64,000 nucleotides of DNA, from positions 166-64,165 of the forward strand of contig JAKLGJ010000004.1 of assembly GCA_022710715.1 (NCBI GenBank), read 5' to 3'. The position numbers and the translations under genes were made by a program. The DNA comes from Candidatus Omnitrophota bacterium (GTDB lineage: Bacteria > Omnitrophota > Gorgyraeia > Gygaellales > Profunditerraquicolaceae). Each line of letters starts with the position of its first letter. The first letter of the stretch is position 1. The notes under the pieces are model-generated. The model was not told the DNA's origin. It did no database searches and saw nothing but the letters and a program-made list of their open reading frames with translations. Of the stretch, positions 2 through 48,150 are shown piece by piece.

Positions 2-121
2 GCCGACCTTGCCGGCATAGACTACGCTTTTGACCACGGGAACATCCTGCAGGATTATCTTCGCTTCAAACAGGGGCACGATCCCTTCTCACAGGAGAAC
101 ACCGGCGCAAATCCTTTTTAG
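2..121 (+). CDS. 3' end of an upstream gene of unknown product (39 sense codons then TAG), truncated by the window edge
   Basis: Frame 2 is open from the window edge to TAG at 119-121. The translation (ADLAGIDYAFDHGNILQDYLRFKQGHDPFSQENTGANPF) has a coding-like composition. No domain recognised. Confidence 0.2.
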   Translation, partial: ADLAGIDYAFDHGNILQDYLRFKQGHDPFSQENTGANPF

Positions 122-156
122 CGCCGGGTGTCCCTCGTCGCCTTTCGGGCTACGGC

Positions 157-2070
157 TCACCCTTCTCTAAGTTGTTTTTCGGCGTCTACGATGTCGCGGT
201 TGATCACCCGGATGGATTCGGATATGCGCTCGGTGAGAACAAAAGAGGAAATGGGATTATCTTTGATTTCTTTGAGGATCTGTATGGCCATTCTGAAGTA
301 GCGCACCACTTCGCCTTCGTCGGTATCCGTAAAAGGCAGGATCTTGGAGAATTCCGTTCCCCGCATCCAGTATTCCATGGCCAGCGCCAGATGGAAATAG
401 GGAACTTTGCTTACCGGATAGATGCGGTGTTTCATCTCCCGGCTCTTGATTTTTTCGTGCATCTCTTCGCAGAACATGCGTATCCGCCGGGCATTTTTGG
501 AGATATTCAGGAGGTGTTGATTTTTCCGCGGTTCAAAAACCGCGGACACCGCGATTACGCCCAGGCCGAATTCGTCAAGCTGCTCGAATATTCCCTGATC
601 GTATAATTCCGCAAGGATCAGTTCGTAGCCGTAGACGGATTTGGCAAATTCACCTTTCATCGTGACCCCGCCGGAGTCGATATAACCCATCTCTTTCAGC
701 AGGGTGAGTTTCGCCTCCAGCAAACGCAACGCCTCTTTTTGCTGATGTTTCTTCGACTGGAAATAATGCAAAGAGAGGGCGTATACCCTGGTGAGATCGT
801 CTTTGTATTTCTGATAGAGGTTCAGGATAGTGGCGTACGAAGTGTTGAACTGACTGGTCACGCCTTCGGGTTTGTCATAGATGACCCGCTTGACCTCTTC
901 GGGACTGATCCGGCTGGGGTTGACCCGGCAATAAACAAAACCTTCCTCATCCAGCCCGCGCCTGCCCGCGCGTCCGGCCATCTGATAGAAATCGCGGGTT
1001 TTAAGAATGCGGATGTAATGTCCGTAATATTTGCGCAGGTCGTCGAAAATCACCGAGCGACTGGGCATATTGATCCCCAGGGCGAACGTTTCCGTGGTGA
1101 AGATGACTTTGAGCAGTCTGCTGGTGAAAAGCCTCTCGATCGCTTCTTTGAGCGTGGGGAGCATCCCGGCGTGATGATAGGCGATGCCGCGCTCTATGAG
1201 AGGGTAGATGTTCTGCGCGGATTTTTCGCCTTTCAGATCGAAACGCTGCGCCAGGCCGCGGTACATATCGATGATAATGCGTTTTTCTTCCTTGTTCAGG
1301 AAATCCCGGCTGGCTAATTCGCAGGCCAGGTCTTCGGCGCGTTTGCGGCCGAAAACAAAATAAATGCACGGCAACCCTTCGCGGTTTTCCAAATAACTGA
1401 CCAGCGAAAAGAGCTTGTTTGATTTTGCGTAGGCGAATTTCCTCGGCTGGGGTATTTTGTCCGAAACCATGTTGCCGCACTGGAAAAAGAAATGCAGCGG
1501 CACCGGCCGCTTTTCTTCGATAACGATTTTGATGGGTTTGGCGTGTATGGATTCTATCCAGTCCGCGACCTGCTTGATGTTGGGAATGGTGGCGGATAGC
1601 CCGAGCAGGTTCATGTGCTTGGGGAGGAACATCAGCGATTCTTCCCAGACGGTCCCGCGTTCGGGATTGTCCAGGTAATGGATTTCGTCGAAAATGACCC
1701 AGGAATAACGCTTGAGGCTGTCCGGTTCGTCGAGGATCTTGTTGCGGAAGATCTCGGTGGTCATGATCAGGACCGGCGCGTCGGGGTTGAGCGAGACGTC
1801 CCCGGTCAGGATCCCGATACTGTCGGCGAATCCAACCTGGAAATCGCGGAATTTCTGGTTCGAAAGGGCTTTGATGGGAGCGGTATAGATGACCCCTACG
1901 CCGCGTTCCAGGGAGCTTTGTATGACATGTTCGGCAATGGCGGTTTTGCCTGCGCCGGTGGGAGCGGAGACGATGACGGAGAGATCCTGATTGATGTAGT
2001 CGATGGCTTCCTGCTGGAACCGGTCGTAGCGCATGCTTCTATTATATTCTAAATCAGTTGATTTATCCAC
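157..2070 (-). CDS. Superfamily-2 DEAD/DEAH-box helicase, Ski2/HelY-like
   Basis: Walker A SAPTGAGKT, DEIH (motif II) and SAT motifs; helicase C-terminal domain with the QMAGRAGRRG motif. 637 aa. The start could instead be the ATG at 2034 (MRYDRF...); the track start is a GTG. Confidence 0.85.
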   Translation of the reverse strand: MDKSTDLEYNRSMRYDRFQQEAIDYINQDLSVIVSAPTGAGKTAIAEHVIQSSLERGVGVIYTAPIKALSNQKFRDFQVGFADSIGILTGDVSLNPDAPVLIMTTEIFRNKILDEPDSLKRYSWVIFDEIHYLDNPERGTVWEESLMFLPKHMNLLGLSATIPNIKQVADWIESIHAKPIKIVIEEKRPVPLHFFFQCGNMVSDKIPQPRKFAYAKSNKLFSLVSYLENREGLPCIYFVFGRKRAEDLACELASRDFLNKEEKRIIIDMYRGLAQRFDLKGEKSAQNIYPLIERGIAYHHAGMLPTLKEAIERLFTSRLLKVIFTTETFALGINMPSRSVIFDDLRKYYGHYIRILKTRDFYQMAGRAGRRGLDEEGFVYCRVNPSRISPEEVKRVIYDKPEGVTSQFNTSYATILNLYQKYKDDLTRVYALSLHYFQSKKHQQKEALRLLEAKLTLLKEMGYIDSGGVTMKGEFAKSVYGYELILAELYDQGIFEQLDEFGLGVIAVSAVFEPRKNQHLLNISKNARRIRMFCEEMHEKIKSREMKHRIYPVSKVPYFHLALAMEYWMRGTEFSKILPFTDTDEGEVVRYFRMAIQILKEIKDNPISSFVLTERISESIRVINRDIVDAEKQLREG

Positions 2071-5184: not shown

Positions 5185-5371
5185 TAATCTATTGAAAAGG
5201 GTTGACTTACCGGGTACACTTAAGTAGATACATTATCGATGTATGCTTTATTAAGAGCGTGTCCTACCGAAAAGGGCCTTAGTTGAAACAAGAGGCCAAA
5301 GCCACGGGGTCAGGGGGGGAACTTCCGAACAGGTAGCATAACCTCTCTATAGATTTTTGACTAACCGGGTT

Positions 5372-5403
5372 GCCGAAGAGGATAAGGCAATTCGGTTTTT
5401 TTA
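5372..5403 (+). terminator. Hairpin (GCCGAA-N13-TTCGGT) followed by a U-tract, 14 nt upstream of the start of the large surface-protein gene
   Basis: Stem-loop plus TTTTTTTATTT. It could terminate the aroK unit or attenuate entry into the downstream gene. Confidence 0.4.
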
Positions 5404-5416
5404 TTTAGGACATAAA

Positions 5417-7999
5417 ATGAAAAATCAGCGTTTAAACCAGATAATCCGGAAAGTTACTTCAGCCCTGCTGGTCCTGATTTTCTCTCTTTCAGAGATTATC
5501 GGGATTGGAGCAGGAGAAGCGCTGGTTTACGATTTCCTGGGTCAAATCGGTGATTTTGCTTTACCTTCAGCCCAGGCTGCCCTGGATAGTGGATATAGCA
5601 GTTCGATCCCCAGCGGTTATTTCAGTTCTGTAACTTCTTCCACGTCAAGTTTTCCAACCGTATCATCAACCGTATCATCCGGGTCTTCTTATAGCTTTCA
5701 GAGTCCCAGTACAGTCATGGCTAGAGCGAATACCGAGTTTAGCTCTTCCAGCTATTCTAATTCTTTCGCCGCATCTTATGGCTCGACTATTCCCAGTACA
5801 GCGTCATTATTAAGCAGGTTCAGTGGCACTGAATCAGGCTTCAATGTAAGTGCCACTTCAACCAGCCCGGTTACCGCCTCTTCAAGTTTCACCAATCTGG
5901 TGGGGCAGAATTACCAGAACAATCAGGTTAATTTCCAGTCTTTATTAAACAACTATTCTGCTGAATCTTCACCGCTCCAATTCCGGTCTTTGGAAAGCCG
6001 TTTTTCTTCCGAATACACACCAATCCAATTCCGGAATTCTACCTCTGAAACTCCTTTTCAGAGCCTGGTTTCGCAGAATTATGCTGATCTTCGCTCTACT
6101 TTGGCGGCCCAGTATGCGGCTGAATCTTCCTGGTATTCCAACCCTTTGAATCCCAGTTCCCAGAGTTCGACTACCGGTTCAACAGGTTCCACCACTGCAC
6201 CCGGTTCTGTTTATCAGACCAGTTCGTTTTCAGATCTAATATCTCGATTTTCCAGTACTTATTCCGAATTTGCCAGCAATCCCCGGTTTCAGTTTACCGA
6301 TTACACTGCTACTTCCAGCCTTGTTTCACGCTTTACCACAAGTTCCGATACGTCTTCTACCAGCTCTTCATTGCTTTCCCGGCTTATATCTTCAACAACA
6401 ACCGGAACTCTAACTGGTACGGCTACCACCGGAACTTCCAGCAATAACGCCACTGCGCCCAGCACACAGAATTACACTTCTACTCATACTGTGGCTACGC
6501 CCAGCCCTGCGGTTGCGGTCCAAACAGCCAATACCACACAATCCGCGGCTAACGCTCCGGCTTCGCAAAGATCTGCCGGTTCACCGATCGTGGATGGGAG
6601 AGTGCAGGGTAAGAGCGCGATGACTGTCAGCGGTACAACGGCGGCACTATCCGGGGGGGTTAATTCGATTCTGTATAATCCGGGGATCAACAGCCAGTTA
6701 CCCGCAGAATATAACAAATTATTGACCGTTAACGGCAGCCGCTCACTGGTGGAAAACGGGGTCGTGGCTACAGAGAACCAGATGGTGGAAGTCGGTCCGC
6801 GCACTGCCCGGGATTTATTGATTGCCCGCCAGTCCCGCGCAGCGGAATCAGTAGCCGGCGATAATGTCCTGGTCGAAGCAGCGAACGCGTCTGCCGAACA
6901 GCCTCTTTTTAAAGCCAATTTATTGAACGCTAATCCTGCTACCGGTGATTTTACGGCCAAGAATGACTGGCAGGCTTATAAGAATCAGATCGATATAGTC
7001 AAGCAGAAGAATAATGACATCAAATTATCGGAATTATTGAAGAATTCACTCACCCCGTTGATGAAATCGCCGCTCGCCAACAAGCTTATGAACGGTTTAA
7101 TGGAAGTTTGCAGTGATGTACGCATGCCGTCATCCAGAAAAACATTTGATACGGATACGTTGCCGCCGTTACCCCGGCAAACGAATGATAAAGAAAGCAT
7201 CAGCGCTCATTCTAAAGAGAAGGGTATCATTGCCCAGGATTACCACGCACAATCCAGCCCGATCAATCCGGTTACTCAATTCATAGATTATACTCGACCG
7301 GTCAGTGATTATCTGATCAAAAACGGTTTGTCTCCGCCGGGCGGGAACATTTTATTTTCCTCTCTTCCCGCTTCAAATAACCGTATCACCACCTCATCCG
7401 AAGATAAAAACAGTCGGCTCGAGTCTTTGCCGCTGATTTATTCCTCTGGTAATTCCTCCACGCTTGATTCAAACAAAAATTCCATTGCCTTCACTAATGT
7501 TTCTCATTCGAATTCAATCAGTTCTATAGATTGTTTCTCCCCCAGGGCCCTGACGACTTCACGTGTTGGGGCCCTCCCCCTGACAGACCAGCCCGTTACC
7601 GGGCATAAAAATAGCGAAAGCGTAGATTGTTTCTCCCCCAGGGCCCTGACGACTTCACGTGTTGGGGCCCTCCCCCTGACAGAACAGCCCGTTACCGGGC
7701 ATAAAAATAGCGAAAGCGTAGATTGTTTCTCCCCCAGGGCCTTGGTGACTTCAGTTGCCAGGGCCCTCCCCCTGACAGAACAGCCCGTTACCGGGCATAA
7801 AAATAGCGAAAGCGTAGATTGTTTCTCCCCCAGGGCCTTGGTGACTTCAGTTGCTAGGGCCCTCCCCCTGACAGACCAGCCCGTTACCGGGCATAAAAAT
7901 AGCGAAAGCGTAGATTGTTTCTCCCCCAGGGCCCTGACGACTTCACGTGTTGGGGCCCTCCCCCTAAACCATTGTAACCAAGGAGGCAGCAATGTGTAA
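5417..7999 (+). CDS. Large Ser/Thr-rich signal-anchored (secreted or surface) protein with five C-terminal 32-aa tandem repeats
   Basis: N-terminal hydrophobic anchor (ALLVLIFSLSEIIGIGAG). About 600 aa of low-complexity S/T/Q-rich sequence with degenerate FQS/RFSS motifs. The C-terminus is DCFSPRALTTSRVGALPLTDQPVTGHKNSESV x5. Start taken at the ATG at 5417 (MKNQRL...). Confidence 0.75.
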   Translation: MKNQRLNQIIRKVTSALLVLIFSLSEIIGIGAGEALVYDFLGQIGDFALPSAQAALDSGYSSSIPSGYFSSVTSSTSSFPTVSSTVSSGSSYSFQSPSTVMARANTEFSSSSYSNSFAASYGSTIPSTASLLSRFSGTESGFNVSATSTSPVTASSSFTNLVGQNYQNNQVNFQSLLNNYSAESSPLQFRSLESRFSSEYTPIQFRNSTSETPFQSLVSQNYADLRSTLAAQYAAESSWYSNPLNPSSQSSTTGSTGSTTAPGSVYQTSSFSDLISRFSSTYSEFASNPRFQFTDYTATSSLVSRFTTSSDTSSTSSSLLSRLISSTTTGTLTGTATTGTSSNNATAPSTQNYTSTHTVATPSPAVAVQTANTTQSAANAPASQRSAGSPIVDGRVQGKSAMTVSGTTAALSGGVNSILYNPGINSQLPAEYNKLLTVNGSRSLVENGVVATENQMVEVGPRTARDLLIARQSRAAESVAGDNVLVEAANASAEQPLFKANLLNANPATGDFTAKNDWQAYKNQIDIVKQKNNDIKLSELLKNSLTPLMKSPLANKLMNGLMEVCSDVRMPSSRKTFDTDTLPPLPRQTNDKESISAHSKEKGIIAQDYHAQSSPINPVTQFIDYTRPVSDYLIKNGLSPPGGNILFSSLPASNNRITTSSEDKNSRLESLPLIYSSGNSSTLDSNKNSIAFTNVSHSNSISSIDCFSPRALTTSRVGALPLTDQPVTGHKNSESVDCFSPRALTTSRVGALPLTEQPVTGHKNSESVDCFSPRALVTSVARALPLTEQPVTGHKNSESVDCFSPRALVTSVARALPLTDQPVTGHKNSESVDCFSPRALTTSRVGALPLNHCNQGGSNV
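7529..7966. repeat. Direct tandem repeat, 96-bp unit x about 4.5 copies, more than 90% identical, inside the coding sequence
   Basis: Unit starts at 7529, 7625, 7721, 7817 and 7913. Copies differ only in a short TTGGTGACTTCAGTTGC versus CTGACGACTTCACGTGT segment. Confidence 0.95.
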
Positions 8000-9532: not shown

Positions 9533-11498
9533 GCAATTGATTATTGTAGAATCGCCTACCAAAGCAAAAACAATCGGCAAGATTATGGGCAAAGATTATT
9601 CGGTAATGTCGACCATGGGACATATGATCGATTTGCCTAAAACCAAGCTGGGAGTGGATATCGAGAAAGGATTTGAACCTTCCTACGTCATCCTTACCGG
9701 GAGAAAAAAAGTCGTCGCTCAATTGAAAAAAGAAGCCGCCGCGGTGGAGCATATCTACATCGCTACCGACCCTGACCGGGAAGGAGAAGCTATCGGCTGG
9801 CATATCAAGGCGAGATTCCTCAAGGATAAGAGCGTATCCCGGGTTAATTTCCACGAGATTACCGCGGAAGCCGTCAAGCACGCTTTTACCCAGCCGCGGG
9901 AATTCGACGCCAATATGATCGAAGCGCAAACCAGCCGCAGGATTCTTGATCGTATCGTGGGTTATTATTTAAGCCCGCTGCTGTGGAAAAAGATCGCCCG
10001 GGGGTTGAGCGCCGGCCGGGTCCAGTCGGTAGCGCTGCGTTTGATCGTGGAACGGGAGCGTCAGATCCAGGCATTCGTGCCGCAGGAATACTGGGAGATT
10101 GAAGCCCGGCTGCAGCAGAAAGCGTCGCCGGCGGTATTTATCGCCAAGCTGACAGCGATCGACGGCCAGAAGGTCCAGGTTGCCGTCAAAGAAGAGGCGG
10201 ATAAGCTGCTGGCGGATATACAGAGCAAGCAGTTTACGGTGCAGGATATCAGGGAAACCGAGAAGCGGCGTAATCCCGACGCGCCGTTTATTACCAGCAC
10301 GCTGCAGCAGGAAGCGTTCAATAAGCTGCGCTATAACGCCGTGAAGACCATGCTGGTCGCCCAGCAGTTGTATGAAGGTATCGATATCGGAGAGGAAACC
10401 CCGGTGGGGTTGATCACCTATATGCGAACCGATTCCACCACCGTTGCCGCCGAGGCGGTAGCCCAGGTCCGCAGCCTTATCGAGGAGAAATACGGCAAGC
10501 CGTATCTGCCCGAGAAGCCGCCGGTGTACAAAAGCAAGAAATTCGCGCAACAGGCGCATGAAGCCATTCGTCCGACGTTGATTCGCCGGCCTCCGGAGAG
10601 CTTGCGGCAATTCCTTACCCCGGAGCAAGCCGAGCTGTATCAGCTTATCTATAACCGTTTTATCGCCAGCCAGATGACTCCCAGCGTGTACAAAGTAATC
10701 AGCGTCGATATCCGGGCGGACCGATATGGTTTTTCCGCCAGCGGCAGCACGCTTCTGTTCGACGGGTTCTCTACGGTCTATGTCAAAGAGGACGAAGAGA
10801 AAGACAAGGAGAAGGAAAAGCAGCACTTGCCCGTGTTGTCCAAAGAGGAGATCCTGGATCTGGTCGGGTTGGACCCTTCCCAGCATTTTACCAAGCCGCC
10901 CGCGCGTTTTTCCGACAGCTCCCTGGTCAAGATACTTGAAGAGGAAGGCATCGGCCGTCCGTCCACCTATGCCCCGATCATCTCCACGTTGATCCAGCGC
11001 GGGTATGTGCATCGGATCAAAGGATATCTTAACCCGTCCGAGCTGGGATTCAAGGTGTGCGATATGCTGGTTTCTTATTTCCCCGAGATACTCGACGTCA
11101 AATTTACCGCCTATATGGAAGAAGAGCTCGATGAGGTCGAAGACGGCACGATCAAGGGCGTCAAGGTTCTGAATGATTTCTATACCCCGTTCAAGAATAG
11201 TTTCGATTACGCGCAAAACAACATCAAAAAAGAAGTGATCGAAGCGGGAGAGAATTGCGAAAAGTGCGGAAAGCCGATGATCATCAAGTGGGGCAGAAAA
11301 GGGAAATTCTTGAGCTGCTCGGGTTTCCCGGAATGCAAGCATTCCAAGTCGATTACCACCGGGATCAAATGCCCGCAGCCCGATTGTACCGGGGAGATCA
11401 TCGAGCGCCGTTCCAAGCGGGGCGCTTTCTACGGCTGCACCCGTTACCCGAACTGCACCTATACCGCCAAGACGCTGCCTGAACAGAAAGAGGAGTGA
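9522..11498 (+). CDS. topA: DNA topoisomerase I with C-terminal zinc-ribbon repeats
   Basis: TOPRIM N-terminus LIIVESPTKAKTIG, the active-site region and C-terminal CxxC zinc fingers. The start overlaps the dprA stop. Confidence 0.95.
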   Translation: MSAKQLIIVESPTKAKTIGKIMGKDYSVMSTMGHMIDLPKTKLGVDIEKGFEPSYVILTGRKKVVAQLKKEAAAVEHIYIATDPDREGEAIGWHIKARFLKDKSVSRVNFHEITAEAVKHAFTQPREFDANMIEAQTSRRILDRIVGYYLSPLLWKKIARGLSAGRVQSVALRLIVERERQIQAFVPQEYWEIEARLQQKASPAVFIAKLTAIDGQKVQVAVKEEADKLLADIQSKQFTVQDIRETEKRRNPDAPFITSTLQQEAFNKLRYNAVKTMLVAQQLYEGIDIGEETPVGLITYMRTDSTTVAAEAVAQVRSLIEEKYGKPYLPEKPPVYKSKKFAQQAHEAIRPTLIRRPPESLRQFLTPEQAELYQLIYNRFIASQMTPSVYKVISVDIRADRYGFSASGSTLLFDGFSTVYVKEDEEKDKEKEKQHLPVLSKEEILDLVGLDPSQHFTKPPARFSDSSLVKILEEEGIGRPSTYAPIISTLIQRGYVHRIKGYLNPSELGFKVCDMLVSYFPEILDVKFTAYMEEELDEVEDGTIKGVKVLNDFYTPFKNSFDYAQNNIKKEVIEAGENCEKCGKPMIIKWGRKGKFLSCSGFPECKHSKSITTGIKCPQPDCTGEIIERRSKRGAFYGCTRYPNCTYTAKTLPEQKEE

Positions 11499-37416: not shown

Positions 37417-39448
37417 ACATATTCTTTTTGTCACCTTGAGCAACATCGGCGACGTCGTGTTGACTTTACCGGTGATGGATCGGCTCAAGCAGATCTTTCC
37501 CGGGTGCCGGATAACGGTAGTGGTCAGTCCGCGCGCCCGGGACATCTTTGCGCAGGATGCCTCGGTAGAGCAGGTCATCGTGTATGATAAACATGCACCG
37601 CTGCGGGAAAAGTTCGCTCTTCTCAAGAAGCTCTCTGCCGGACGGTTTGATGCGGTCATAGATCTGCGCAACAGCCTGTTCGGCTATCTGGTGCCGGCGC
37701 GTTTAAAGTCGCGGAAAGCGTATCGACTGGCCCGCAGCGCGCATATGAAGGAGCGTCATCTTGCCGCCGTGTCCCATTTCCCGCATCAGACGCACGAGCC
37801 CCGCCCCGGCTGCCTGAATAGTTCTGCAGAAGAAATCGCCGGGGTGCAACGTCTGCTTGCCGGGTACGGTGTCAATGCCGGAGAAAAACCGGTACTGCTT
37901 TCAGCCGGTGCGCGCAGCCTGACCAAACGTTGGCCGAAGGAGCATTTTGCCGAACTGGCCCGCCGCTTGATCAAGGAACTGCGGGTGCGGGTTATCCTGG
38001 TAGGGGATAGCGCCGATGTCGAGAATAACCGCGGTATTGCCGCTGCCTGCAACGGCGTTATCGATCTCACCGGAAAGACGACGCTGCGCGAATTAATTGC
38101 GCTGGTGCGCATCGCGGAATTGATCATTACCAACGACAGCGCTACGTTGCATCTGGCAAGTTATCTTGACCGGTCGGTACTGGCGCTGTTCGGTCCTACG
38201 GACGAAGTTCGTTACGGACCCTGGTCGCGGCGCAAGCAGGCGATTTTCAAACATATTGCCTGCCGGCCCTGCCAGCAGGCGTTATGTCGCTTCGGTCATT
38301 GCTATTGTCTGACCAGTATCCGGCCGGACGCGGTTTTCCAGGCCGCCCGGCGTTTTCTGACCCAGCCCGGATTACCTGTCGGAGCGTTGCCCGGAGAGGA
38401 TGCCGTCCGGCGGATCCTGATCGTCCGCACCGACAAACTCGGCGATGTCATCCTTTCGACGCCGGTATTTCAGGCGTTGCGTGAAGCGTATCCGCGCGCC
38501 TATCTGGTGCTGCTGGTCCGTCCCTATACCTTCCCGGCGGTGAAGCACAATCCGTTTATCGACGAGATAATCCCCTATGACAAAGCCGGCATCGGCAGAA
38601 GCTGGTGGAAAACCCTGGGCATGGTCCGCGTCCTCCGGCAGCACCGGTTTGATCTGGCGGTTATCCTGCATCCATCCATCCGTAATCATCTGCTGACCTT
38701 CCTGGCCGGGATCCCTCATCGGGTCGGTTACAGCGGCAAAGGCAGTTTCCTGCTTACCGATACGCTCGAGAACAGCAAACATCTCGGAAAAAAGCATGAG
38801 ATCGATTATAATCTGGATCTTATCCGTTCTTTAGGCATCGAGCCCCAGCGGCCGGCATTGTTCCTGGGGATAGGTGCCGGTGAGCGGGAGTGGGCCGCGC
38901 AAGCGTTGGATCAGGCGCATATCCTGCCTGCGGATCGGCTGGTAATCCTCCATCCGGGCACCAATGATCCGTCGCGCACCTGGTTGCCGCAGCGGTATGC
39001 CGCGGTTGCCGATGCCGTCATTCAGCGCTGGGGGTGCAAAGTGATGGTTTTTTCCGGAGAGACGGATCGCGCAATCGCCGAACAGGTGCTTAAGGAAATG
39101 CGCGCTCCGGCCGTCAATATGATCGCCCGGGCCACGATCATGCAGGAAGCTGCGGTGCTGCAGCGAGCCGCAGTGTTCATTTCCACAGACACCGGGCCGA
39201 TGCATATCGCTTCCGCTCTGGGGGTACCGGTGGTCGCTCTTTTTGGCAGGAGAGATCCCGGCGTGGGGCCGCTGCGCTGGGGGCCGGTAAGCCCGCGCAG
39301 CCGGGTAGTGCAAAAAGATCCCGGTTGTCCGCAATGCTTCGCTCACCGGTGTACCCGGGGATTCCGCTGCTTGCAGGCGATCGAGGTTCAGGATGTGCTG
39401 CAAGCGGTCGAAGCGGTCCTGAACGGGGTTGAGCGCGCGCAATCCTAA
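37400..39448 (+). CDS. Tandem double GT9 heptosyltransferase (two complete GT9 modules in one polypeptide)
   Basis: Two copies of the N-terminal signature (ILFVTLSNIGDVVLTLPVM... and ILIVRTDKLGDVILSTPVF...), each followed by a GT9 C-terminal half. 682 aa. Confidence 0.8.
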   Translation: MSIAAKHILFVTLSNIGDVVLTLPVMDRLKQIFPGCRITVVVSPRARDIFAQDASVEQVIVYDKHAPLREKFALLKKLSAGRFDAVIDLRNSLFGYLVPARLKSRKAYRLARSAHMKERHLAAVSHFPHQTHEPRPGCLNSSAEEIAGVQRLLAGYGVNAGEKPVLLSAGARSLTKRWPKEHFAELARRLIKELRVRVILVGDSADVENNRGIAAACNGVIDLTGKTTLRELIALVRIAELIITNDSATLHLASYLDRSVLALFGPTDEVRYGPWSRRKQAIFKHIACRPCQQALCRFGHCYCLTSIRPDAVFQAARRFLTQPGLPVGALPGEDAVRRILIVRTDKLGDVILSTPVFQALREAYPRAYLVLLVRPYTFPAVKHNPFIDEIIPYDKAGIGRSWWKTLGMVRVLRQHRFDLAVILHPSIRNHLLTFLAGIPHRVGYSGKGSFLLTDTLENSKHLGKKHEIDYNLDLIRSLGIEPQRPALFLGIGAGEREWAAQALDQAHILPADRLVILHPGTNDPSRTWLPQRYAAVADAVIQRWGCKVMVFSGETDRAIAEQVLKEMRAPAVNMIARATIMQEAAVLQRAAVFISTDTGPMHIASALGVPVVALFGRRDPGVGPLRWGPVSPRSRVVQKDPGCPQCFAHRCTRGFRCLQAIEVQDVLQAVEAVLNGVERAQS

Positions 39449-39456
39449 AAAACCTG

Positions 39457-39484
39457 TTGACAAAGTATGGTCGGGTGCTATCAT
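39457..39484 (+). promoter_or_regulatory. Sigma70-like promoter TTGACA-N16-TATCAT immediately after the LPS operon stop
   Basis: Consensus -35 and a good -10 read from the sequence. The predicted transcription start (about 39491) is only ~15 nt before a strong terminator. Confidence 0.4.
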
Positions 39485-39506
39485 AACAACCTAACTGCTG
39501 TGGACA

Positions 39507-39550
39507 AAGACGTCCTTGGAAGTGACAAGGTCGTCTTTTTTGTTTTTCAA
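39507..39550 (+). terminator. Rho-independent terminator (12-bp stem with one mismatch, 7-nt loop, TTTTTTGTTTTTCA tail)
   Basis: AAGACGTCCTTG-GAAGTGA-CAAGGTCGTCTT followed by the U-tract. Confidence 0.7.
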
Positions 39551-39650
39551 TGTGCCTAAAAAACAGGCAATCGTAGCATAGATGAACGTAAATAAGGCAA
39601 AACAGGCCGCGTATCAATCAACACACCCGACGCAGACAGGTGGTGCGCCG

Positions 39651-39770
39651 GTGTCGCCCTTGCGGGAATACACCTTGCGCAATCGGAATATGCGCAAGTG
39701 TTGCCCTTGCGGGAACATACCTTGCGCAATTGGAATATGCGCAAGTGTTGCCCTTGCGGGCAAGGAGGAG
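39651..39770 (+). promoter_or_regulatory. Tandemly duplicated (47-nt unit, about 2.5 copies) two-hairpin element in the gdhA 5' leader; the last copy presents the GGAGG SD
   Basis: Hairpin A: CTTGCGCA-(ATCGGAATA or ATTGGAATA)-TGCGCAAG at 39674-39698 and 39721-39745. Hairpin B: TTGCCC-TTGC-GGGCAA at 39748-39763, followed directly by GGAGG and the ATG at 39776. Confidence 0.55.
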
Positions 39771-39775
39771 AAGAG

Positions 39776-41113
39776 ATGTCGAAGAGAATTGACGAATTCA
39801 TGGAACTGGTTATCGCGAAAAACCCCGGTGAGAAAGAATTTCATCAGGCGGTTCGCGAGGTCGTGGAAACGGTAATGCCGTTTATCGAAGAGAATCCCAA
39901 GTATCTCAAGGCAAAAATCCTTGAGAGAATCATTGAGCCTGAACGGATAATCATCTTCCGCGTTCCCTGGCTGGATGATAAAGGCGAAGTGCAGGTAAAC
40001 CGCGGTTTCCGCATTGAAATGAACAGCGCCATCGGGCCGTACAAAGGCGGATTGCGTCTGCATCCCAGCGTGAATCTGGGGATCCTGAAATTCCTGGCTT
40101 TTGAGCAGGTATTCAAGAACAGTCTGACCACGCTGCCCATGGGTGGCGGCAAGGGCGGTTCGGATTTCGATCCCAAAGGAAAGTCCGATAATGAAGTAAT
40201 GCGTTTTTGCCAGAGTTTCATGACCGAACTGCAAAGACATATCGGTCCGGATACGGATGTGCCTGCCGGCGATATCGGCGTAGGCGGCCGCGAGATCGGT
40301 TTTCTGTTCGGCCAGTACAAAAGACTGCGCAACGAGTTTACCGGGGTTCTCACCGGTAAAGGATTGAACTGGGGCGGCAGCCTTATCCGTCCGGAAGCTA
40401 CCGGTTATGGCTGCGTGTATTTTGCCCAGGAAATGCTGCGTACCCGCGGCGAGTCCCTTGAGGGTAAAGTCTGCACCGTATCCGGTTCCGGCAACGTCGC
40501 CCAGTATACCGTGGAGAAGTTGCTGCAGCTGGGAGCAAAACCGGTGACGCTCTCCGATTCCGACGGATATATCTATGACGCTGACGGGATCAGCGAACAG
40601 AAGCTTAAATTCGTTCTGGAGCTTAAGAACGTCAAGCGCGGGCGCATCAAAGAATATGCCCAGAAGTACGGCTGCAAATTCCTGGAAGGCAAGCGGCCGT
40701 GGGAAGTCAAATGCGATATCGCATTCCCGTCCGCCACGCAGAACGAGATCGATGAAGCTGACGCCAAGAAACTGGTCAAGAACGGCTGCATGTGCGTGGC
40801 CGAAGGCGCGAACATGCCGTCTACTCCGGAGGCGATCGCAGTTTTTCAGGCAGCGAAGATCCTGTATGCTCCCGGCAAAGCTTCCAATGCCGGCGGCGTC
40901 GCTACCAGCGGTCTGGAAATGTCCCAGAATAGCCAGCGTTTAGCCTGGACCAGAGAAGAAGTGGATGAGAAATTGCATCAGATCATGATCAAGATACATG
41001 ATTCATGCGTCAAGTATGGAAAAGAAGGCAAGTATATCAATTATGTCAAAGGCGCCAATATCGCCGGGTTCGTCAAAGTGGCGGACGCCATGATCGATCA
41101 GGGTTTAGTGTAA
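39776..41113 (+). CDS. gdhA: NADP-specific glutamate dehydrogenase
   Basis: GDH catalytic region [11 protein letters not shown]...[19 protein letters not shown] and a Rossmann GSGNVAQY motif. Confidence 0.95.
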
Positions 41114-41186: not shown

Positions 41187-41328
41187 AAGTCGTCTAACGC
41201 TTTGTCCCGTAATGGCTTTTATCCCTCAAGTATCTCTCCCGGAATGCCGATAACTAATTAGCAATCAAAGGTATTGCATACCTTACGCTAAAAAAAGCAT
41301 ACGTATTGCCTTCGCAGGCAAGGAGTGA

Positions 41329-43458
41329 ATGGTGTCGATATTGCTGGAAGCGTTGTTAAGGGAGCATGTCATCAGTCCTGAACAGGTGCAGGAAGCGCAG
41401 GAAAAGCAGCTCGGCGCTAAAAAGCCGCTATTGACTTTGCTGCTGGAAATGCATTCCGTGACCGAACAGAATCTGATGACTGCGGCGTCGCATGTATTCA
41501 ATATGCCGGTATGCGACCTGGATAAAGAGTTCATCGACGCGGAAGCGCTCAAACTTATTCCTTACGAGACCGCTAAACAATACAGCATCATTCCGTTGCG
41601 CGTGGAGGCGGATGCGCTGGTTATCGCGATGAGCGATCCGGAAGACAGCCTGGTCATAGATCAGATGCGCGCGGTGTCCGGAAAACAGGTTACATCCGTT
41701 CTGGCCATAGAAAGCCAGATCGTCAAGGCCATTGAAAAAGCGTATCACGCCGATGATGTCGTTTATGACCTGCTCAAGAACACGCAGACATGCGGCGATC
41801 TGTCCATCGACCAGGATGCGGCGTTCGGGCGTCAGGCGGTCGATGTCAGCGCCAGCCGGGATATCCATTCGCCGGCGGTAAAATTGGCGCATATGATCAT
41901 TCACGATGCGATCAAAAACCGGGCCAGCGATATTCACATAGAACCGAAAGAGAACGAAGTGCTGGTGCGCTATCGCATCGACGGTGAACTGCGGCAGATC
42001 ATGACTCTTCCGGCAATCACGTACGCTTCGCTGATCGGCAGAATCAAGATCATGGGCGGTATCGATATATCGGAAAACAGAAAGCCGCAGGACGGCAGGG
42101 TCAGGATAGTGCTGGATAAAAGAAAGATCGATATCCGCATATCCACGCTGCCCACGGTTTTCGGCGAGCGGGTGGAATTGAGAGTTCTCGATCCCCAGGA
42201 AGCCAAAATCGTCCTGGACAGGATCGGCTTGGAGACCCAGGAGCTGGGCATGTTCACCGACGCTATTCACCGCCCCAAGGGGATGGTTCTGGTTACCGGG
42301 CCGACCGGCGCCGGCAAGAATTCCACCATTTACGCGGCTTTGAATGTTTTAAAAGACGGCAAACGCAACATCATTACTCTCGAAGATCCGGTCGAGTATC
42401 TGATGGACGGGATTAACCAGATCCAGGTCAATCCGGCTATCGATCTGACGTTCGCCGCCGGCCTGCGCAGCATTCTGCGGCAGGACCCGGACATTATTTC
42501 GGTCGGCGAGATCCGCGATGAAGAGACCGCCGAGATCGCTTTTAAAAGCGCCATGACCGGGCATCTGGTGTTTTCGACCCTGCATACGATCAATGCCGTG
42601 GCGACCCTGTCGCGGTTGATGAATATGGGGCTGCAGCCGTATATGCTCTCTTCGGCTCTGCTGTTGATCGTTGCCCAGCGGCTGGTGCGTTGCATTTGCC
42701 CGTTGTGCAAGGAAGAGTACCGGCCTGATGAGAAGACTGTTCAGCTGTTCCTGGAGTATTTCGACAATTCCACATTACGCAAGACGTACCGGGGCAGGGG
42801 GTGCGCCAGCTGTAATTTCAGCGGCTATTTCGGCCGGATCGCAATTTTCGAGCTCCTGCCGATCACCATGGAAATCCGTCGTATCATCGATTCCGGTTTC
42901 AGCGAGGAAGCGGTATTCCAGCAGGCGCGTAACCACGGGTTAAGGACTCTGGCCGAAGCGGGTATCGCTAAAGTATCCCAGGGTATAACCACGCTGGAAG
43001 AAGTCGCGCGGGTGGCGGAGCTGATTCCCATGGGTACGAATACCGGGGAATCTCCGGGCATCCAGCGCAAAGGAACGCATATCCTGGTGGCGGATGACGA
43101 TGAGAGTATACACAAATTGCTCGGCGCCTATCTTGAGCATGCCGGATTTCAGGTCAGCCATGCCAGAGACGGGGAAGAGTTGATCGCGCTGGTTATGAGC
43201 GAAAAACCGGATATGGTCATTACTGACGTGACCATGCCCAAGAAGACGGGGTTGGAAGCCACCCAACAGCTGCGTTCGAATCTCTCCACTGCGGGTATTC
43301 CCATCCTGATGCTCACCGCCCGGGAAGATAAAGCCAGCGAACTGGCCGGTTTGCATGCCGGAGTGGATGATTATATGACCAAGCCGTTTGATTACGAAAA
43401 GCTTCTGGCGCGGGTACAGATGCTTTTGCGTCGCAGCACCGCGTCTTCTTTTGCTTGA
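41329..43458 (+). CDS. Type II secretion / type IV pilus assembly ATPase (GspE/PilB family) with a C-terminal CheY-like receiver (REC) domain
   Basis: N-terminal GSPII_E domain; Walker A GPTGAGKNST; Asp and His boxes; the CxxC...CxxC tetracysteine. The C-terminal ~125 aa (ILVADDDESI...DMVITDVTMPKKTG...LTAREDK...KPF) are a REC domain. Confidence 0.85.
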   Translation: MVSILLEALLREHVISPEQVQEAQEKQLGAKKPLLTLLLEMHSVTEQNLMTAASHVFNMPVCDLDKEFIDAEALKLIPYETAKQYSIIPLRVEADALVIAMSDPEDSLVIDQMRAVSGKQVTSVLAIESQIVKAIEKAYHADDVVYDLLKNTQTCGDLSIDQDAAFGRQAVDVSASRDIHSPAVKLAHMIIHDAIKNRASDIHIEPKENEVLVRYRIDGELRQIMTLPAITYASLIGRIKIMGGIDISENRKPQDGRVRIVLDKRKIDIRISTLPTVFGERVELRVLDPQEAKIVLDRIGLETQELGMFTDAIHRPKGMVLVTGPTGAGKNSTIYAALNVLKDGKRNIITLEDPVEYLMDGINQIQVNPAIDLTFAAGLRSILRQDPDIISVGEIRDEETAEIAFKSAMTGHLVFSTLHTINAVATLSRLMNMGLQPYMLSSALLLIVAQRLVRCICPLCKEEYRPDEKTVQLFLEYFDNSTLRKTYRGRGCASCNFSGYFGRIAIFELLPITMEIRRIIDSGFSEEAVFQQARNHGLRTLAEAGIAKVSQGITTLEEVARVAELIPMGTNTGESPGIQRKGTHILVADDDESIHKLLGAYLEHAGFQVSHARDGEELIALVMSEKPDMVITDVTMPKKTGLEATQQLRSNLSTAGIPILMLTAREDKASELAGLHAGVDDYMTKPFDYEKLLARVQMLLRRSTASSFA

Positions 43459-43482
43459 CAAATCGCTCTGACGTGCTATACT
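43455..43482 (+). promoter_or_regulatory. Sigma70-like promoter TTGACA-N16-TATACT overlapping the stop codon of the GspE-REC gene
   Basis: Consensus -35 (includes the TGA stop) and a TATACT -10. Confidence 0.4.
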
Positions 43483-43516
43483 TCTTTCTGTAAGCAATGA
43501 ATGAAGCTGAACAGTG

Positions 43517-43547
43517 ACGTTCGCGAAAGCGAGCGTTTTTTGTTTTT
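43517..43547 (+). terminator. Rho-independent terminator (ACGTTCGC-GAAA-GCGAGCGT, GNRA loop) with the same TTTTTTGTTTTTCA tail as the 39507-39550 terminator
   Basis: 8-bp stem (one G-U pair), GAAA tetraloop and U-tract. Confidence 0.7.
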
Positions 43548-46019: not shown

Positions 46020-46137
46020 ACGTTCGCCGGACAGCGAACGTTTTTCATTTGAGGTCGTTTTTTGCGTTGAACGCAAAAGTTTTCTGACGCGGGCGTCTTA
46101 GATCCAGACAACAGTTCGGATCGAAGACGCCTTTTTT
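46020..46137 (+). promoter_or_regulatory. Three consecutive hairpin-plus-U-tract structures in the 245-bp gap before glnB; the last ends 3 nt before the SD
   Basis: (1) ACGTTCGC-CGGACA-GCGAACGT + TTTTT at 46020-46046. (2) TTTTGCG-TTGAA-CGCAAAA + GTTTT at 46058-46084. (3) GGCGTCTT-N24-AAGACGCC + TTTTTT at 46092-46137. Confidence 0.55.
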
Positions 46138-46153: not shown

Positions 46154-46492
46154 ATGAAGAAAATCGAAGCGGTGATCCGTTCGGAAAAAGTCGGGGCGGT
46201 ACGTAAAGCCCTGGAGCAGGTTGCGATAGCCGGGTTGACCCTGATCCAGGTCGATGGCCACGGGAATCAACGGGGAACGGTACAGAGACTGCGGGGGGAA
46301 GAATTTAAAGTGGGTATCCTTCCCAAGACCAAACTGGAACTGATCGCTGCGGACAAGCATGTCCCGGCGATCATCCGGGCCATCTGTACGGCAGCTCGCA
46401 CCGGGCAGATCGGTGACGGCAAGATATTCGTCTATCCGGTGGAAGAAGCCGTGCGTATCCGCACCGGGGAGTGCGGAGAAAAAGCGCTGTGA
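46154..46492 (+). CDS. glnB: Nitrogen regulatory protein P-II
   Basis: PII fold signature with a T-loop (RGEEFKVGILPK); 112 aa. GAAGGAGG SD. Confidence 0.9.
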   Translation: MKKIEAVIRSEKVGAVRKALEQVAIAGLTLIQVDGHGNQRGTVQRLRGEEFKVGILPKTKLELIAADKHVPAIIRAICTAARTGQIGDGKIFVYPVEEAVRIRTGECGEKAL

Positions 46493-46517: not shown

Positions 46518-47744
46518 ATGAATACAGGAGATACCGCGTGGGTGCTGATATCTGCGGCGCTGGTGCTGTTGATGACGCCGGGGCTGGCCTTCTTTTACGG
46601 CGGCATGGTGCGCAAGAAGAACATTTTGAGCGTGCTCATGCAATGTTTTATCATCATGTGTCTGGTGGGAGTGCAATGGGTGCTTTGCGGCTACAGCCTT
46701 TCTTTTGCTCCGGGCAAGGGGTTCTGGGGGGGATTCGCCTGGATGGGGCTTAACGGCGTGGGGTTCGAGCCGTATGCCGCTTATGCCGGCACTATTCCGC
46801 ATCAAGCCTTCATGATCTTTCAGGCGATGTTCGCAATCATTACTCCGGCGTTGATCATCGGCGCTTTTGCCGAGCGGATGAAATTTTCGGCGTTTCTGAT
46901 CTTTATCCTGCTCTGGTCGACTTTTGTCTACGATCCGGTCTGTCACTGGGTCTGGGGCATCGGCGGATGGCTGCGCGCTCTTGGCGCTTTGGATTTTGCC
47001 GGCGGTACCGTGGTGCACGTCAATGCCGGCATAGCCGCGCTGGTTACGGCATTGATCATAGGAAAGCGCAAACATGTGGAAAAGAATGTTCCGGTTCCCC
47101 ACAATATGCCGTTTGTAGCCCTGGGTACGGGGCTGTTGTGGTTCGGATGGTTCGGGTTCAACGCCGGAAGCGCACTGGCGGCAAACGGACTGGCGGTTAA
47201 TGCTTTTGTTGTGACGACCACCGCCGCTTCAGCCGCGGGGTTAAGCTGGGCGTTGATCGAATGGATGCGTAACGGCAAACCGACGTTGTTGGGCGTCTGT
47301 TCGGGCGCGGTTGCCGGGCTAGTGGCTATTACTCCTGCTGCCGGGTTTGTGAGCGTGGTTCCGGCAATCGTCATCGGGTTGCTGGTCAGTGTTTTTTGCT
47401 ATACTGCGGTAAGCGTGATCAAGCCCGCGCTGGGGTACGACGATTCTCTGGATGCTTTCGGGGTGCATTGCGTGGGCGGCATCTGGGGCGCTCTGGCAAC
47501 CGGGCTGTTCGCTTCCAAAGCGGTGAATCCTGCGGGAGCCGACGGTGCGTTCTTCGGCAATCCCAGGCTGTTCCTGGTGCAATTGATCGCCGTGGGTATC
47601 ACTATCGTCTATTCTTTCATCGTCACCATCGTCATCTACAAAGTGGTCGACGCTCTGGTCGGCGTGCGGGTAGGGGAAAAAGAAGAGTCGCTGGGGCTGG
47701 ATCTGTCTCAACATCACGAACGGGCGTACACGGTGCTGGAGTAG
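46518..47744 (+). CDS. amtB: Ammonium transporter
   Basis: Amt family: 11 transmembrane segments and the DFAGGTVVH and GxxGxxxxG motifs. Confidence 0.95.
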
Positions 47745-47755
47745 CGGTGTTATAC

Positions 47756-47804
47756 CCCGCGCAGATCGGAATTGCGCGGGTATTGCCCTTGTGGGCAAGG
47801 AGGG
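47756..47804 (+). promoter_or_regulatory. Second copy of the two-hairpin motif, filling the amtB-glnK intergenic region: CCCGCGCA-GATCGGAAT-TGCGCGGG, TA, TTGCCC-TTGT-GGGCAA, GGAGGG
   Basis: Same architecture and spacing as the gdhA leader element. The stem sequence differs but pairing is preserved (compensatory changes). Confidence 0.55.
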
Positions 47805-47808
47805 TGGA

Positions 47809-48150
47809 ATGAAGCTGATTATTGCGATCATCCAGCCGGACAAGCTGGAGGAAGTCAAAGAAGAGTTGTATAAGGCCGAAGTGAATCTGCTGACCGTGAA
47901 TGAAGTGTTGGGACATGGTCGTCAAAAAGGGGTAACTGAGGTGTACCGCGGCGCCAGGGAATCCGGGAATCTGCTGCGTAAGGTCCGCCTGGAGATAGCG
48001 GTTAACGACGGTTTTGTGGAGCCGACCGTGAAAGCGATCATCAAAGGCGCTAGAACCGGGGAAACCGGCGACGGAAAGATTTTCGTCCTGGATCTGAAGG
48101 AATGCGTGCGCATCAGAACCGAAGAGCGCGGCTCTCCGGCTATCGGTTGA
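47809..48150 (+). CDS. glnK: Nitrogen regulatory protein P-II (second paralog, GlnK-like)
   Basis: PII fold signature (KLEEVKEEL...[22 protein letters not shown]); 113 aa. Confidence 0.9.

Follow-up and report, generated by a model that had tools for sequence, protein, structure and literature searches.

Insertion sequences of the IS200/IS605 family and palindrome-associated transposable elements (PATEs) carry hairpins in place of terminal inverted repeats, insert in one orientation beside a short specific sequence, cause no duplication, and are excised seamlessly. The BOX elements of Streptococcus pneumoniae and the Correia elements of Neisseria are short, structured, co-transcribed repeats near gene starts that have been reported to alter the expression of their neighbours, and BOX includes a 45-nucleotide (nt) module, boxB, of variable tandem copy number. 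Repetitive extragenic palindromes (REP) and bacterial interspersed mosaic elements (BIMEs), mobilised by the RAYT tyrosine transposases, are small GC-rich hairpin repeats of transcribed intergenic or intercistronic regions, mostly after the coding regions of co-oriented genes; their stems covary between subfamilies, their copy number varies between genomes, and they possibly act as RNA hairpins (PMC3733652). REP elements also carry an unpaired GTAG or CGTC motif at one end (PMC3733652). Here, we describe an element found in a 64,000-nt stretch of a Candidatus Omnitrophota bacterium (a metagenome-assembled genome; GenBank assembly GCA_022710715.1, contig JAKLGJ010000004.1, positions 166 to 64,165 of the forward strand; this whole stretch is called the window below), where it stands directly upstream of gdhA, the glutamate dehydrogenase (GDH) gene, and recurs between amtB and glnK. 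The element belongs to a dispersed repeat family of Candidatus Omnitrophota with a two-hairpin unit of about 48 nt, and we consider, at a probability of roughly 0.55, that it is a non-autonomous mobile element resembling REP sequences and MITEs (miniature inverted-repeat transposable elements), which either targets or persists at Shine-Dalgarno (SD) sites. On this reading, the copies at gdhA and glnK represent two insertions of this kind in the species; they are not a nitrogen-sensing device.

Comparison with relatives showed that hairpin 1 is about 32 nt long, which is longer than a preliminary description of this DNA had proposed. Its consensus is 5'-AYA[C]CNNGCGC...GCGCNNGURU-3', that is, 10 bp with one bulged C (in brackets) and a loop of about 10 nt reading approximately YUUAUUGGWAU. 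Directly 3' of it lies hairpin 2, UGCCC-UUGU-GGGCA (5-6 bp), followed by one A and then by GGAGG. RNAalifold yielded the two-hairpin fold independently and unguided, and the SD lies outside the conserved fold and is left unpaired in the minimum-energy, RNAalifold and single-unit folds. In the seed alignment of 18 copies, from which the covariance model R1 was built, 97.8% of the cells are paired and three pairs are changed on both sides (CG/UA/GC), and none of 500 shuffles matched the observed paired cells and covariation score. Extension to 28 copies gave 97.1% paired cells and 10 of 15 pairs changed on both sides, including all five of hairpin 2; 0 of 500 shuffles reached these values, and register shifts lowered pairing to 25-62%. 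Fitting to the model biases the 28-copy alignment towards the structure, but the differing stems were read directly from the sequence: CUUGGC/GCCAAG, CUGGCCC/GGGCCAG and CUGACGU/ACGUCAG in hairpin 1, and UGCAC/GUGCA, UGCGC/GCGCA, CCCGC/GCGGG, UUCCGC/GCGGAA and UUGUCU/AGACAA in hairpin 2. Against this variation in the stems, three parts of hairpin 1 stay constant: its loop, the bulged C, and AYACC/GURU at its base. The structure of the element is conserved with covariation, and the compensatory change that the preliminary description had taken as the mark of a structured two-hairpin element was borne out.

Upstream of gdhA, the units form a tandem array, delimited by Tandem Repeats Finder at 39644-39760 with a period of 47, 2.5 copies and 91% matches. 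This agrees with the 2.5 copies of a 47-nt unit, with perfect 8-bp stems and 9-nt loops, that had first been noticed there; the stems CTTGCGCA/TGCGCAAG lie at 39674-39698 and 39721-39745, and the loops read ATCGGAATA and ATTGGAATA. Hairpin 1 is present three times and not twice, the extra unit being a degenerate one (unit 0) at the upstream end of the array. Hairpin 2 is degenerate in both upstream units (GGGAAT, GGGAAC) and intact in the third, where TTGCCC-TTGC-GGGCAA (39749-39763) runs without a gap into GGAGG (39764-39768) ahead of the gdhA ATG at 39776, just as had been described. The upstream region of gdhA is base-for-base identical in four independent assemblies (JGI, ENA, NCBI, Logan), and the duplication is therefore genuine and not an assembly artefact. 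Folded one at a time, the units adopt the modelled structure (z-scores of -1.8 to -3.8); when the whole array was folded as one sequence, pairings arose across units and the z-score was weak (-1.0). Pfam confirmed the identities of gdhA, amtB and the two PII genes. The same architecture had been reported between amtB and glnK and is present at that site, where the copy lies between the amtB stop (TAG, 47742-47744) and the glnK ATG (47809) and both hairpins appear in its minimum-energy fold, but the loop core ATCGGAAT is offset by one base between the gdhA and glnK copies. Two more copies in the window, at 80-137 and 41272-41326 (Table 1), had escaped the preliminary description.

Beyond the window, JGI/ENA metagenome contigs were scanned with a pattern covering hairpin 2 in part and, of hairpin 1, only the 3' arm; the 5' arm, the loop and the SD were left free. 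This returned 18 loci, 16 of them true copies and 2 chance matches. Each of the 16 true copies proved to have a 5' arm that complements the 3' arm, although the pattern put no constraint on it, and in 14 of them GGGCAA ran directly into GGAG(G/A), with a start codon 4-9 nt further on in sense orientation. The downstream genes encode ExbD, S3, DnaK, ClpP, a porin, a peptidoglycan-binding lipoprotein, a PF04008 kinase, DUF2934, YajC-like and AMP-ligase-like proteins, and secreted proteins of unassigned function. Four junctions are filled within 20 kb of the ribosomal-protein supercluster of a relative, L049 (EF-G to EF-Tu, S14 to S8, S8 to L6, S13 to S11), and the S8-L6 junction is also filled in L050/L052. 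Overall, sense orientation and zero distance to the SD were found at 23 of 25 independent loci. Two copies have no adjoining SD: L008, which is antisense to both neighbours between rpsI and another gene, and a divergent copy in L040/L041 (12099-12220), which is intergenic, runs antisense to the genes on either side and is enclosed in 25-bp perfect inverted repeats (GGTATCCCCTGTGTAGGGGGTGTCA); the latter may represent the repeat in a composite or carrier form. The proteins beside the copies, including ClpP and S3, have their closest named relatives in Omnitrophota/Omnitrophica, as does locus L008, and the carrier contigs span 39-58% GC. In NCBI, the GDH of the window bears the name Candidatus Omnitrophota bacterium. 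Further tandem arrays occur in L028 (three units with different stems) and L034 (two units), and in L018 one hairpin-1 unit is nested inside the loop of another. The upstream stop codon often touches the element (UAAGACACC in L018, L024 and L033; TGA in L022). Neither the 78 kb of L043-L046, which are four relatives of the genome with the clpP copy, nor the 42 kb of L036/L038 contained a copy, and a broadened model run over about 400 kb of Omnitrophota DNA revealed no divergent copies beyond those listed here. A two-hairpin pattern gave 12 loci in a genome-contig collection, where the species of the window was not matched; 11 were chance matches in GC-rich coding sequence and only L008 was real. 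The scan of a viral-contig collection gave a single chance match lacking hairpin 1.

The family is patchy even between close relatives. In three related Omnitrophota lineages (GDH 87-90% identical), the heptosyltransferase-gdhA synteny is kept, no element precedes gdhA, and the gdhA leaders run directly into AAAAAGGAGG. Of these, only L040/L041 (GDH 87%) carries amtB-glnK as well, and its spacer there is just 19 nt long and lacks the element. Strain L042, whose GDH is 99% identical, has exactly 94 nt fewer before gdhA, which equals two units: unit 0 is present, and units 1 and 2 are missing. Four filled/empty pairs between related genomes (Table 1) differ by a 48-nt block immediately 5' of GGAG, with no target duplication. 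The filled junction reads CAAGGAG, and in three of the four pairs the SD thereby gains two A residues; as ...GGGCAA forms the end of the unit, an extended SD (CAAGGAGG) is rebuilt where the two meet. In L021 (3900-3915), the 48-nt insert falls within the last two rplV codons and changes the C-terminus of L22 from PGE* to PSTPR*, the new stop being a TAA in the loop of hairpin 1. The array of L034 reads GGGCAA/GACACC...GGGCAA/GGAGG, the arrangement expected if two events had followed one another at a single spot. A target-site duplication of AAG, suggested by some copies (UAAG/ACACC...GCAAG/GAGG), was rejected as not general, since L021 has CCT/AGCACC.

Table 1. Units and copies of the element in the window, and filled/empty junction pairs in related genomes. 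The bulged C is given in square brackets; R1 and R2 are covariance models, and unit 0 and the copies at 80-137 and 41272-41326 are all outside the R1 seed.
Feature	Position	Strand	Hairpin 1	Hairpin 2 and SD	Model score	Empty site	Filled site
gdhA unit 0 (degenerate)	39623-39668	+	39623-39654, ACA[C]CCGACGC / GCGCCGGTGT, one A.C mismatch	39655-39668, remnant CGCCC-TTGC-GGGAA	35.5 bits (R1, match 39617-39674); 44 bits (R2)		
gdhA unit 1	39670-39715	+	39670-39701, ACA[C]CTTGCGCA - ATCGGAATA - TGCGCAAGTGT	39702-39715, degenerate, TGCCC-TTGC-GGGAA			
gdhA unit 2 (closest to SD)	39717-39768	+	39717-39748	39749-39762, intact, TGCCC-TTGC-GGGCA	68.9 bits, E 4e-19 (R1)		
amtB-glnK intercistronic copy	47746-47803	+	47752-47783, ATA[C]CCCGCGC...GCGCGGGTAT; 8-bp core stem CCCGCGCA/TGCGCGGG at 47756-47780	47784-47797; GGAGG 47799-47803	79.6 bits, E 2.5e-22 (R1)		
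Divergent copy before PilB-like ATPase/response-regulator gene (Pfam; ATG 41329)	41272-41326	+	weakened	TTGCCT-TCGC-AGGCAA (closing pair changed on both sides), then GGAG	29.5 bits, E 3.5e-7 (R1); 47.9 bits (R2)		
Copy 20 nt past the stop of a helicase gene (157-2070, minus strand), before GTG at 79-77	80-137	-	ACA[C]CCGGCGC/GCGCCGGTGT	TTCTC-CTGT-GAGAA (covaried stem), then GGGA	43 bits, E 2.9e-11 (R1)		
rplV to rpsC						L050, AAACCT/GGAGAATAATTTATG; L049 also empty	L021, AAGCCT[AGCACC...GGGCAA]GGAGATAATCTATG
fusA to tuf						L050	L049
rpsM to rpsK						L050	L049
tig to clpP						L044	L033

Among the described systems, the behaviour of the element appears most like that of the IS200/IS605 family. 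It likewise consists of two different hairpins whose ends are not inverted copies of each other, and at the four filled/empty pairs the block lies 5' of GGAG (on the other strand, 3' of CTCC) and leaves no duplication, although whether each pair reflects gain or loss is something that we infer. The unit of 48 nt is, however, far below the known size of PATEs, and no TnpA was seen in the loci, which were not subjected to a dedicated transposase search. To our knowledge, there is no report of an insertion target that matches the complementary sequence of the SD core, CTCC. With REP/BIME sequences, the element shares small size, GC-rich hairpins, a transcribed intergenic or intercistronic position mostly past the coding regions of co-oriented genes, stems that covary between subfamilies, a copy number that varies between genomes and a possible role as RNA hairpins, and hairpin 1, with about 32 nt, 10 pairs and 97% of the cells paired, falls within the REP description of a stem-loop palindrome of 20-40 bp. 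In contrast to REP, the aligned copies contain no GTAG or CGTC and end in AYACC (5') and in GURU followed by GGGCAA (3'). The Omnitrophota unit also differs from REP/BIME in being composed of two different hairpins, in forming direct tandem arrays (gdhA in the window, L028, L034) and not pairs of alternating orientation, in its fixed orientation and contact with the downstream SD, and in a sequence that is nearly constant across very different GC contents. Classical MITEs have terminal inverted repeats and target duplications, neither of which occurs at the four junctions that were resolved; inverted repeats, of 25 bp, surround the L040 copy alone. BOX and Correia elements are composites of greater length (about 100-200 nt) that can be found in either orientation and have no fixed tie to the SD, and Correia elements have terminal inverted repeats. 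Small structured dispersed repeats as such are already known, and the novelty of this family lies in its placement against the SD.

These observations can be arranged into a mechanism, which we put forward conditionally. A unit would be gained or lost as a DNA block immediately 5' of the GGAG core of an SD, with the mobilising activity supplied in trans; insertion in the manner of IS200/IS605, on the opposite strand and 3' of CTCC, would be compatible with this. Repeated gain at one spot, or slippage between units, would then produce tandem arrays such as the three-unit array of gdhA. The intercistronic positions imply co-transcription with the host operon, and the RNA would form the bulged 10-bp hairpin and the short hairpin stacked against the SD, which would be left single-stranded and two A residues longer. 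As the SD stays unpaired in the fold, an insertion would be expected to do no harm or to help slightly, and the expected effect on downstream translation and mRNA stability is neutral to mildly positive. The patchy occurrence, with four loci in the window, four junctions in 20 kb of L049 and none in L043-L046 or L036/L038, argues for such a mobile repeat.

Several points weigh on the other side. No transposase or other mobilising gene was present in the loci seen, where no search was aimed at one, and the direction of each event, insertion as against precise loss, is our inference. Terminal inverted repeats and target duplications, as in a classical MITE, and the GTAG/CGTC tag of REP are all missing. 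The loop, the bulged C and AYACC/GURU are conserved across 39-58% GC, which a host RNA-binding factor could explain equally well. The numbers of G.U cells (11) and A.C cells (10) do not distinguish RNA from single-stranded DNA as the folding strand. The diverged S8-L6 copy occurs in two species (L049 and L050), with pairing kept through U.G pairs and one double change, so some copies outlast speciation, as a useful RNA element would. Finally, functional selection, and not a target preference, may account for the copies at genes for ribosomal proteins, chaperones and a porin.

A bolder form of the mobile-element reading is offered tentatively, as we would not place it at even odds. In this form, a putative enzyme, possibly of the single-strand HUH/Y1 type, would place the 48-nt hairpin pair site-specifically at the GGAG of working ribosome-binding sites, even within ribosomal-protein operons and the final codons of rplV, thereby strengthening the SD, and the result would be a portable translation-initiation module that the host tolerates or exploits; this would be the first repeat family to use the ribosome-binding site as a "safe harbour". 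If the placement is due to targeting, it represents a new insertion specificity for small mobile DNA and a natural plug-in ribosome-binding-site module for synthetic biology. If selection is responsible, the implication is that an uncultured phylum has a lineage-specific factor which recognises a conserved hairpin beside the SD. In either case, a family of repeats and RNA structures is added that is present on many Omnitrophota contigs and has no match in Rfam 15 and no description in the literature searched.

The selection branch leads to the strongest rival explanation, in which the element is a portable translation or stability module that serves the host, is bound by an Omnitrophota-specific factor (an RNA-binding protein or the ribosome) and spreads by its usefulness. 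It would boost or globally tune initiation and mRNA half-life of highly expressed genes and uncouple the cistron from its upstream neighbour. We regard this as rather unlikely to be the leading cause of the pattern, but it is not exclusive of the mobile-element reading and the two are compatible with each other. The orientation and zero-distance SD adjacency at 23 of the 25 independent loci speak for it, and the downstream genes often encode abundant proteins (EF-Tu, ribosomal proteins, DnaK, ClpP, porin, GDH, PII). The YUUAWWGGWAU loop, the bulged C and the AYACC...GURU base are kept despite wholly changed stems (L040 and L028 units), and the orthologous S8-L6 copy is kept in L049 and L050. 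Moreover, where the upstream stop touches hairpin 1, as in the three loci with UAAGACACC, a terminating ribosome would melt the hairpin. However, a module of this kind is missing at gdhA, glnK, clpP, rpsC, tuf and rpsK of near relatives in which the genes and their order are kept, and strains differ by two units. The copies in L008 and L040 lie away from any SD, one copy damages the end of rplV, and no factor is known. As a separate observation, hairpin 2 of the diverged S8-L6 copy of L050 (13550-13590) is CCUC-UAUUU-GAGG, in which the sole SD-like GAGG is paired with a CCUC anti-SD; this copy might repress its ribosome-binding site and not expose it.

A more specific proposal along these lines, that the element is a CsrA/RsmA-type target on which a dimeric global translational repressor spans the distance between a GGA in the hairpin 1 loop and that of the SD, seems very improbable. 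Many loops read UUGGAAU or AAGGAAU, which places a GGA about 32 nt upstream of that of the SD, and GGA occurs in the hairpin 1 loop of roughly two-thirds of the 28 aligned copies. The remainder, about a third, have GGU or no GG at all, for example GGTAT (L017, L025, L030, L049), CAAAT (L008) and AAAAAAA (41272 in the window), and the conserved stem base and bulge are not required by CsrA. Targets of ANTAR proteins also have two hairpins, each with a 6-nt loop carrying A at position 1 and G at position 4. The Omnitrophota loops, of about 10 nt and 4 nt, do not resemble this dual-hexaloop arrangement.

The preliminary description had favoured a motif of the nitrogen regulon, possibly a tandem nitrogen-responsive riboswitch or the site of a nitrogen-dependent RNA-binding regulator controlling access to the SD of gdhA and glnK. 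This reading is largely refuted, and we give it almost no credence. It drew on the fact that two of the four loci in the window precede nitrogen-assimilation genes and that the element is structured and adjoins the SD. The other two loci have no tie to nitrogen, 14 of the 16 true copies in the pattern scan precede unrelated genes, and more than 20 copies precede genes without a nitrogen link. Copies had been expected upstream of glnA, amt, gltB and ureA; they were instead found before housekeeping genes. The orthologous gdhA and glnK of relatives lack the element, and the SD is free in the conserved fold. The doubt that had been expressed about a match to a known RNA family was well founded, as cmscan against Rfam 15 gave no hit above the gathering threshold in the whole 64-kb window. 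At E<=10, only SNORA70 noise was found in 39300-39900 and only RT-4 noise (E 2.4) in 47650-47900, with no match to the glnA RNA (RF01739) or Downstream-peptide (RF01704) around either locus. Literature searches for the sequence itself, and for Omnitrophota together with SD, RNA motif, repeat or hairpin, returned no description of the element. Guanidine-II (mini-ykkC) and other small two-hairpin riboswitches, as well as tandem glutamine riboswitches, also present two short hairpins upstream of the SD, sometimes in tandem, but the Omnitrophota element differs from them in matching no Rfam family, in loops that are not ACGR, in a free SD, in downstream genes that share no pathway, and in not being conserved at orthologous genes. 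What remains is the removal of a false lead, as there is no new nitrogen riboswitch here. A candidate sigma-54 promoter in the gdhA units (GGGAAC-ATACC-TTGCG, with GG-N10-GC spacing) was also rejected as a junction artefact, since canonical copies have no GG there and the glnK copy is off by one.

A double-stranded DNA operator, such as a CIRCE-like palindromic site before dnaK and clpP or the site of a nitrogen regulator, would suit hairpin 1 as an inverted repeat of 8-10 bp with a 9-10 bp spacer that precedes heat-shock genes, but has next to no likelihood: the half-sites change on both sides with complementarity kept (CCCGCGC, CCGGCGC, CTCGCGC, CTGGCGC, CTTGCGC, CTGACGT, CTTGGC, CTGGCCC; 3 to 10 pairs double-changed), the spacer, that is the loop, is the conserved part, many intercistronic copies lie 0-3 nt from the upstream stop with no room for a promoter, and the fixed distance is to the SD and not to a promoter. 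Since the stems covary while the loop, bulge and base are constant, an operator with fixed half-sites is ruled out, in line with what had been argued from the first two loci.

The control of gdhA is probably exerted by a different leader further upstream and not by the repeat, which is a further point against the nitrogen reading. A near-consensus sigma-70 promoter (TTGACA-16-TGcTATCAT, 39457-39484) precedes the array, and some 20 nt beyond it lies a strong intrinsic terminator (39505-39548). This leader of promoter, hairpin and U-run, with ACAARGACGT at the foot of the hairpin and then GCCTAAAAAACAGGC, is conserved before gdhA in L036, L038 and L040 (at about 9835-9960), where the gdhA loci have no repeat. 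A similar leader lies before nadE in the window (43457-43545); taken together, these leaders have a promoter of the form TTGACA-16-TGnTATCAT and a terminator within about 20-60 nt of it. The leader could be a short small RNA or a transcription-attenuation leader for nitrogen-related genes. Three consecutive terminator-like hairpins were also seen at 46030-46135, immediately ahead of the SD that serves the first PII gene (46155-46492); one of them starts with GACGTTCGC, like the leader of nadE. This PII gene precedes amtB in a PII-amtB-PII operon.

The repeat has practical consequences for the analysis of Omnitrophota genomes. It breaks assemblies, and Logan contigs end within it (L016, L048). 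It also leads gene callers to lengthen N-termini, which matters for annotation: against a GDH of 445 aa, longer N-termini were listed or called in the window (39698-39775; 471 aa, a mechanical open reading frame and not a gene call), in L042 (478 aa) and in other relatives (451-488 aa). In the window and L042, the added residues come from translation across the repeat; those of the other relatives are ordinary upstream sequence and not a translation of the repeat. Elsewhere in the window, a 96-nt tandem repeat (7527-7965; 4.6 copies, 94% identity) lies inside an open reading frame of 880 aa (5357-7999) and is therefore a 32-residue coding repeat and not an intergenic feature.

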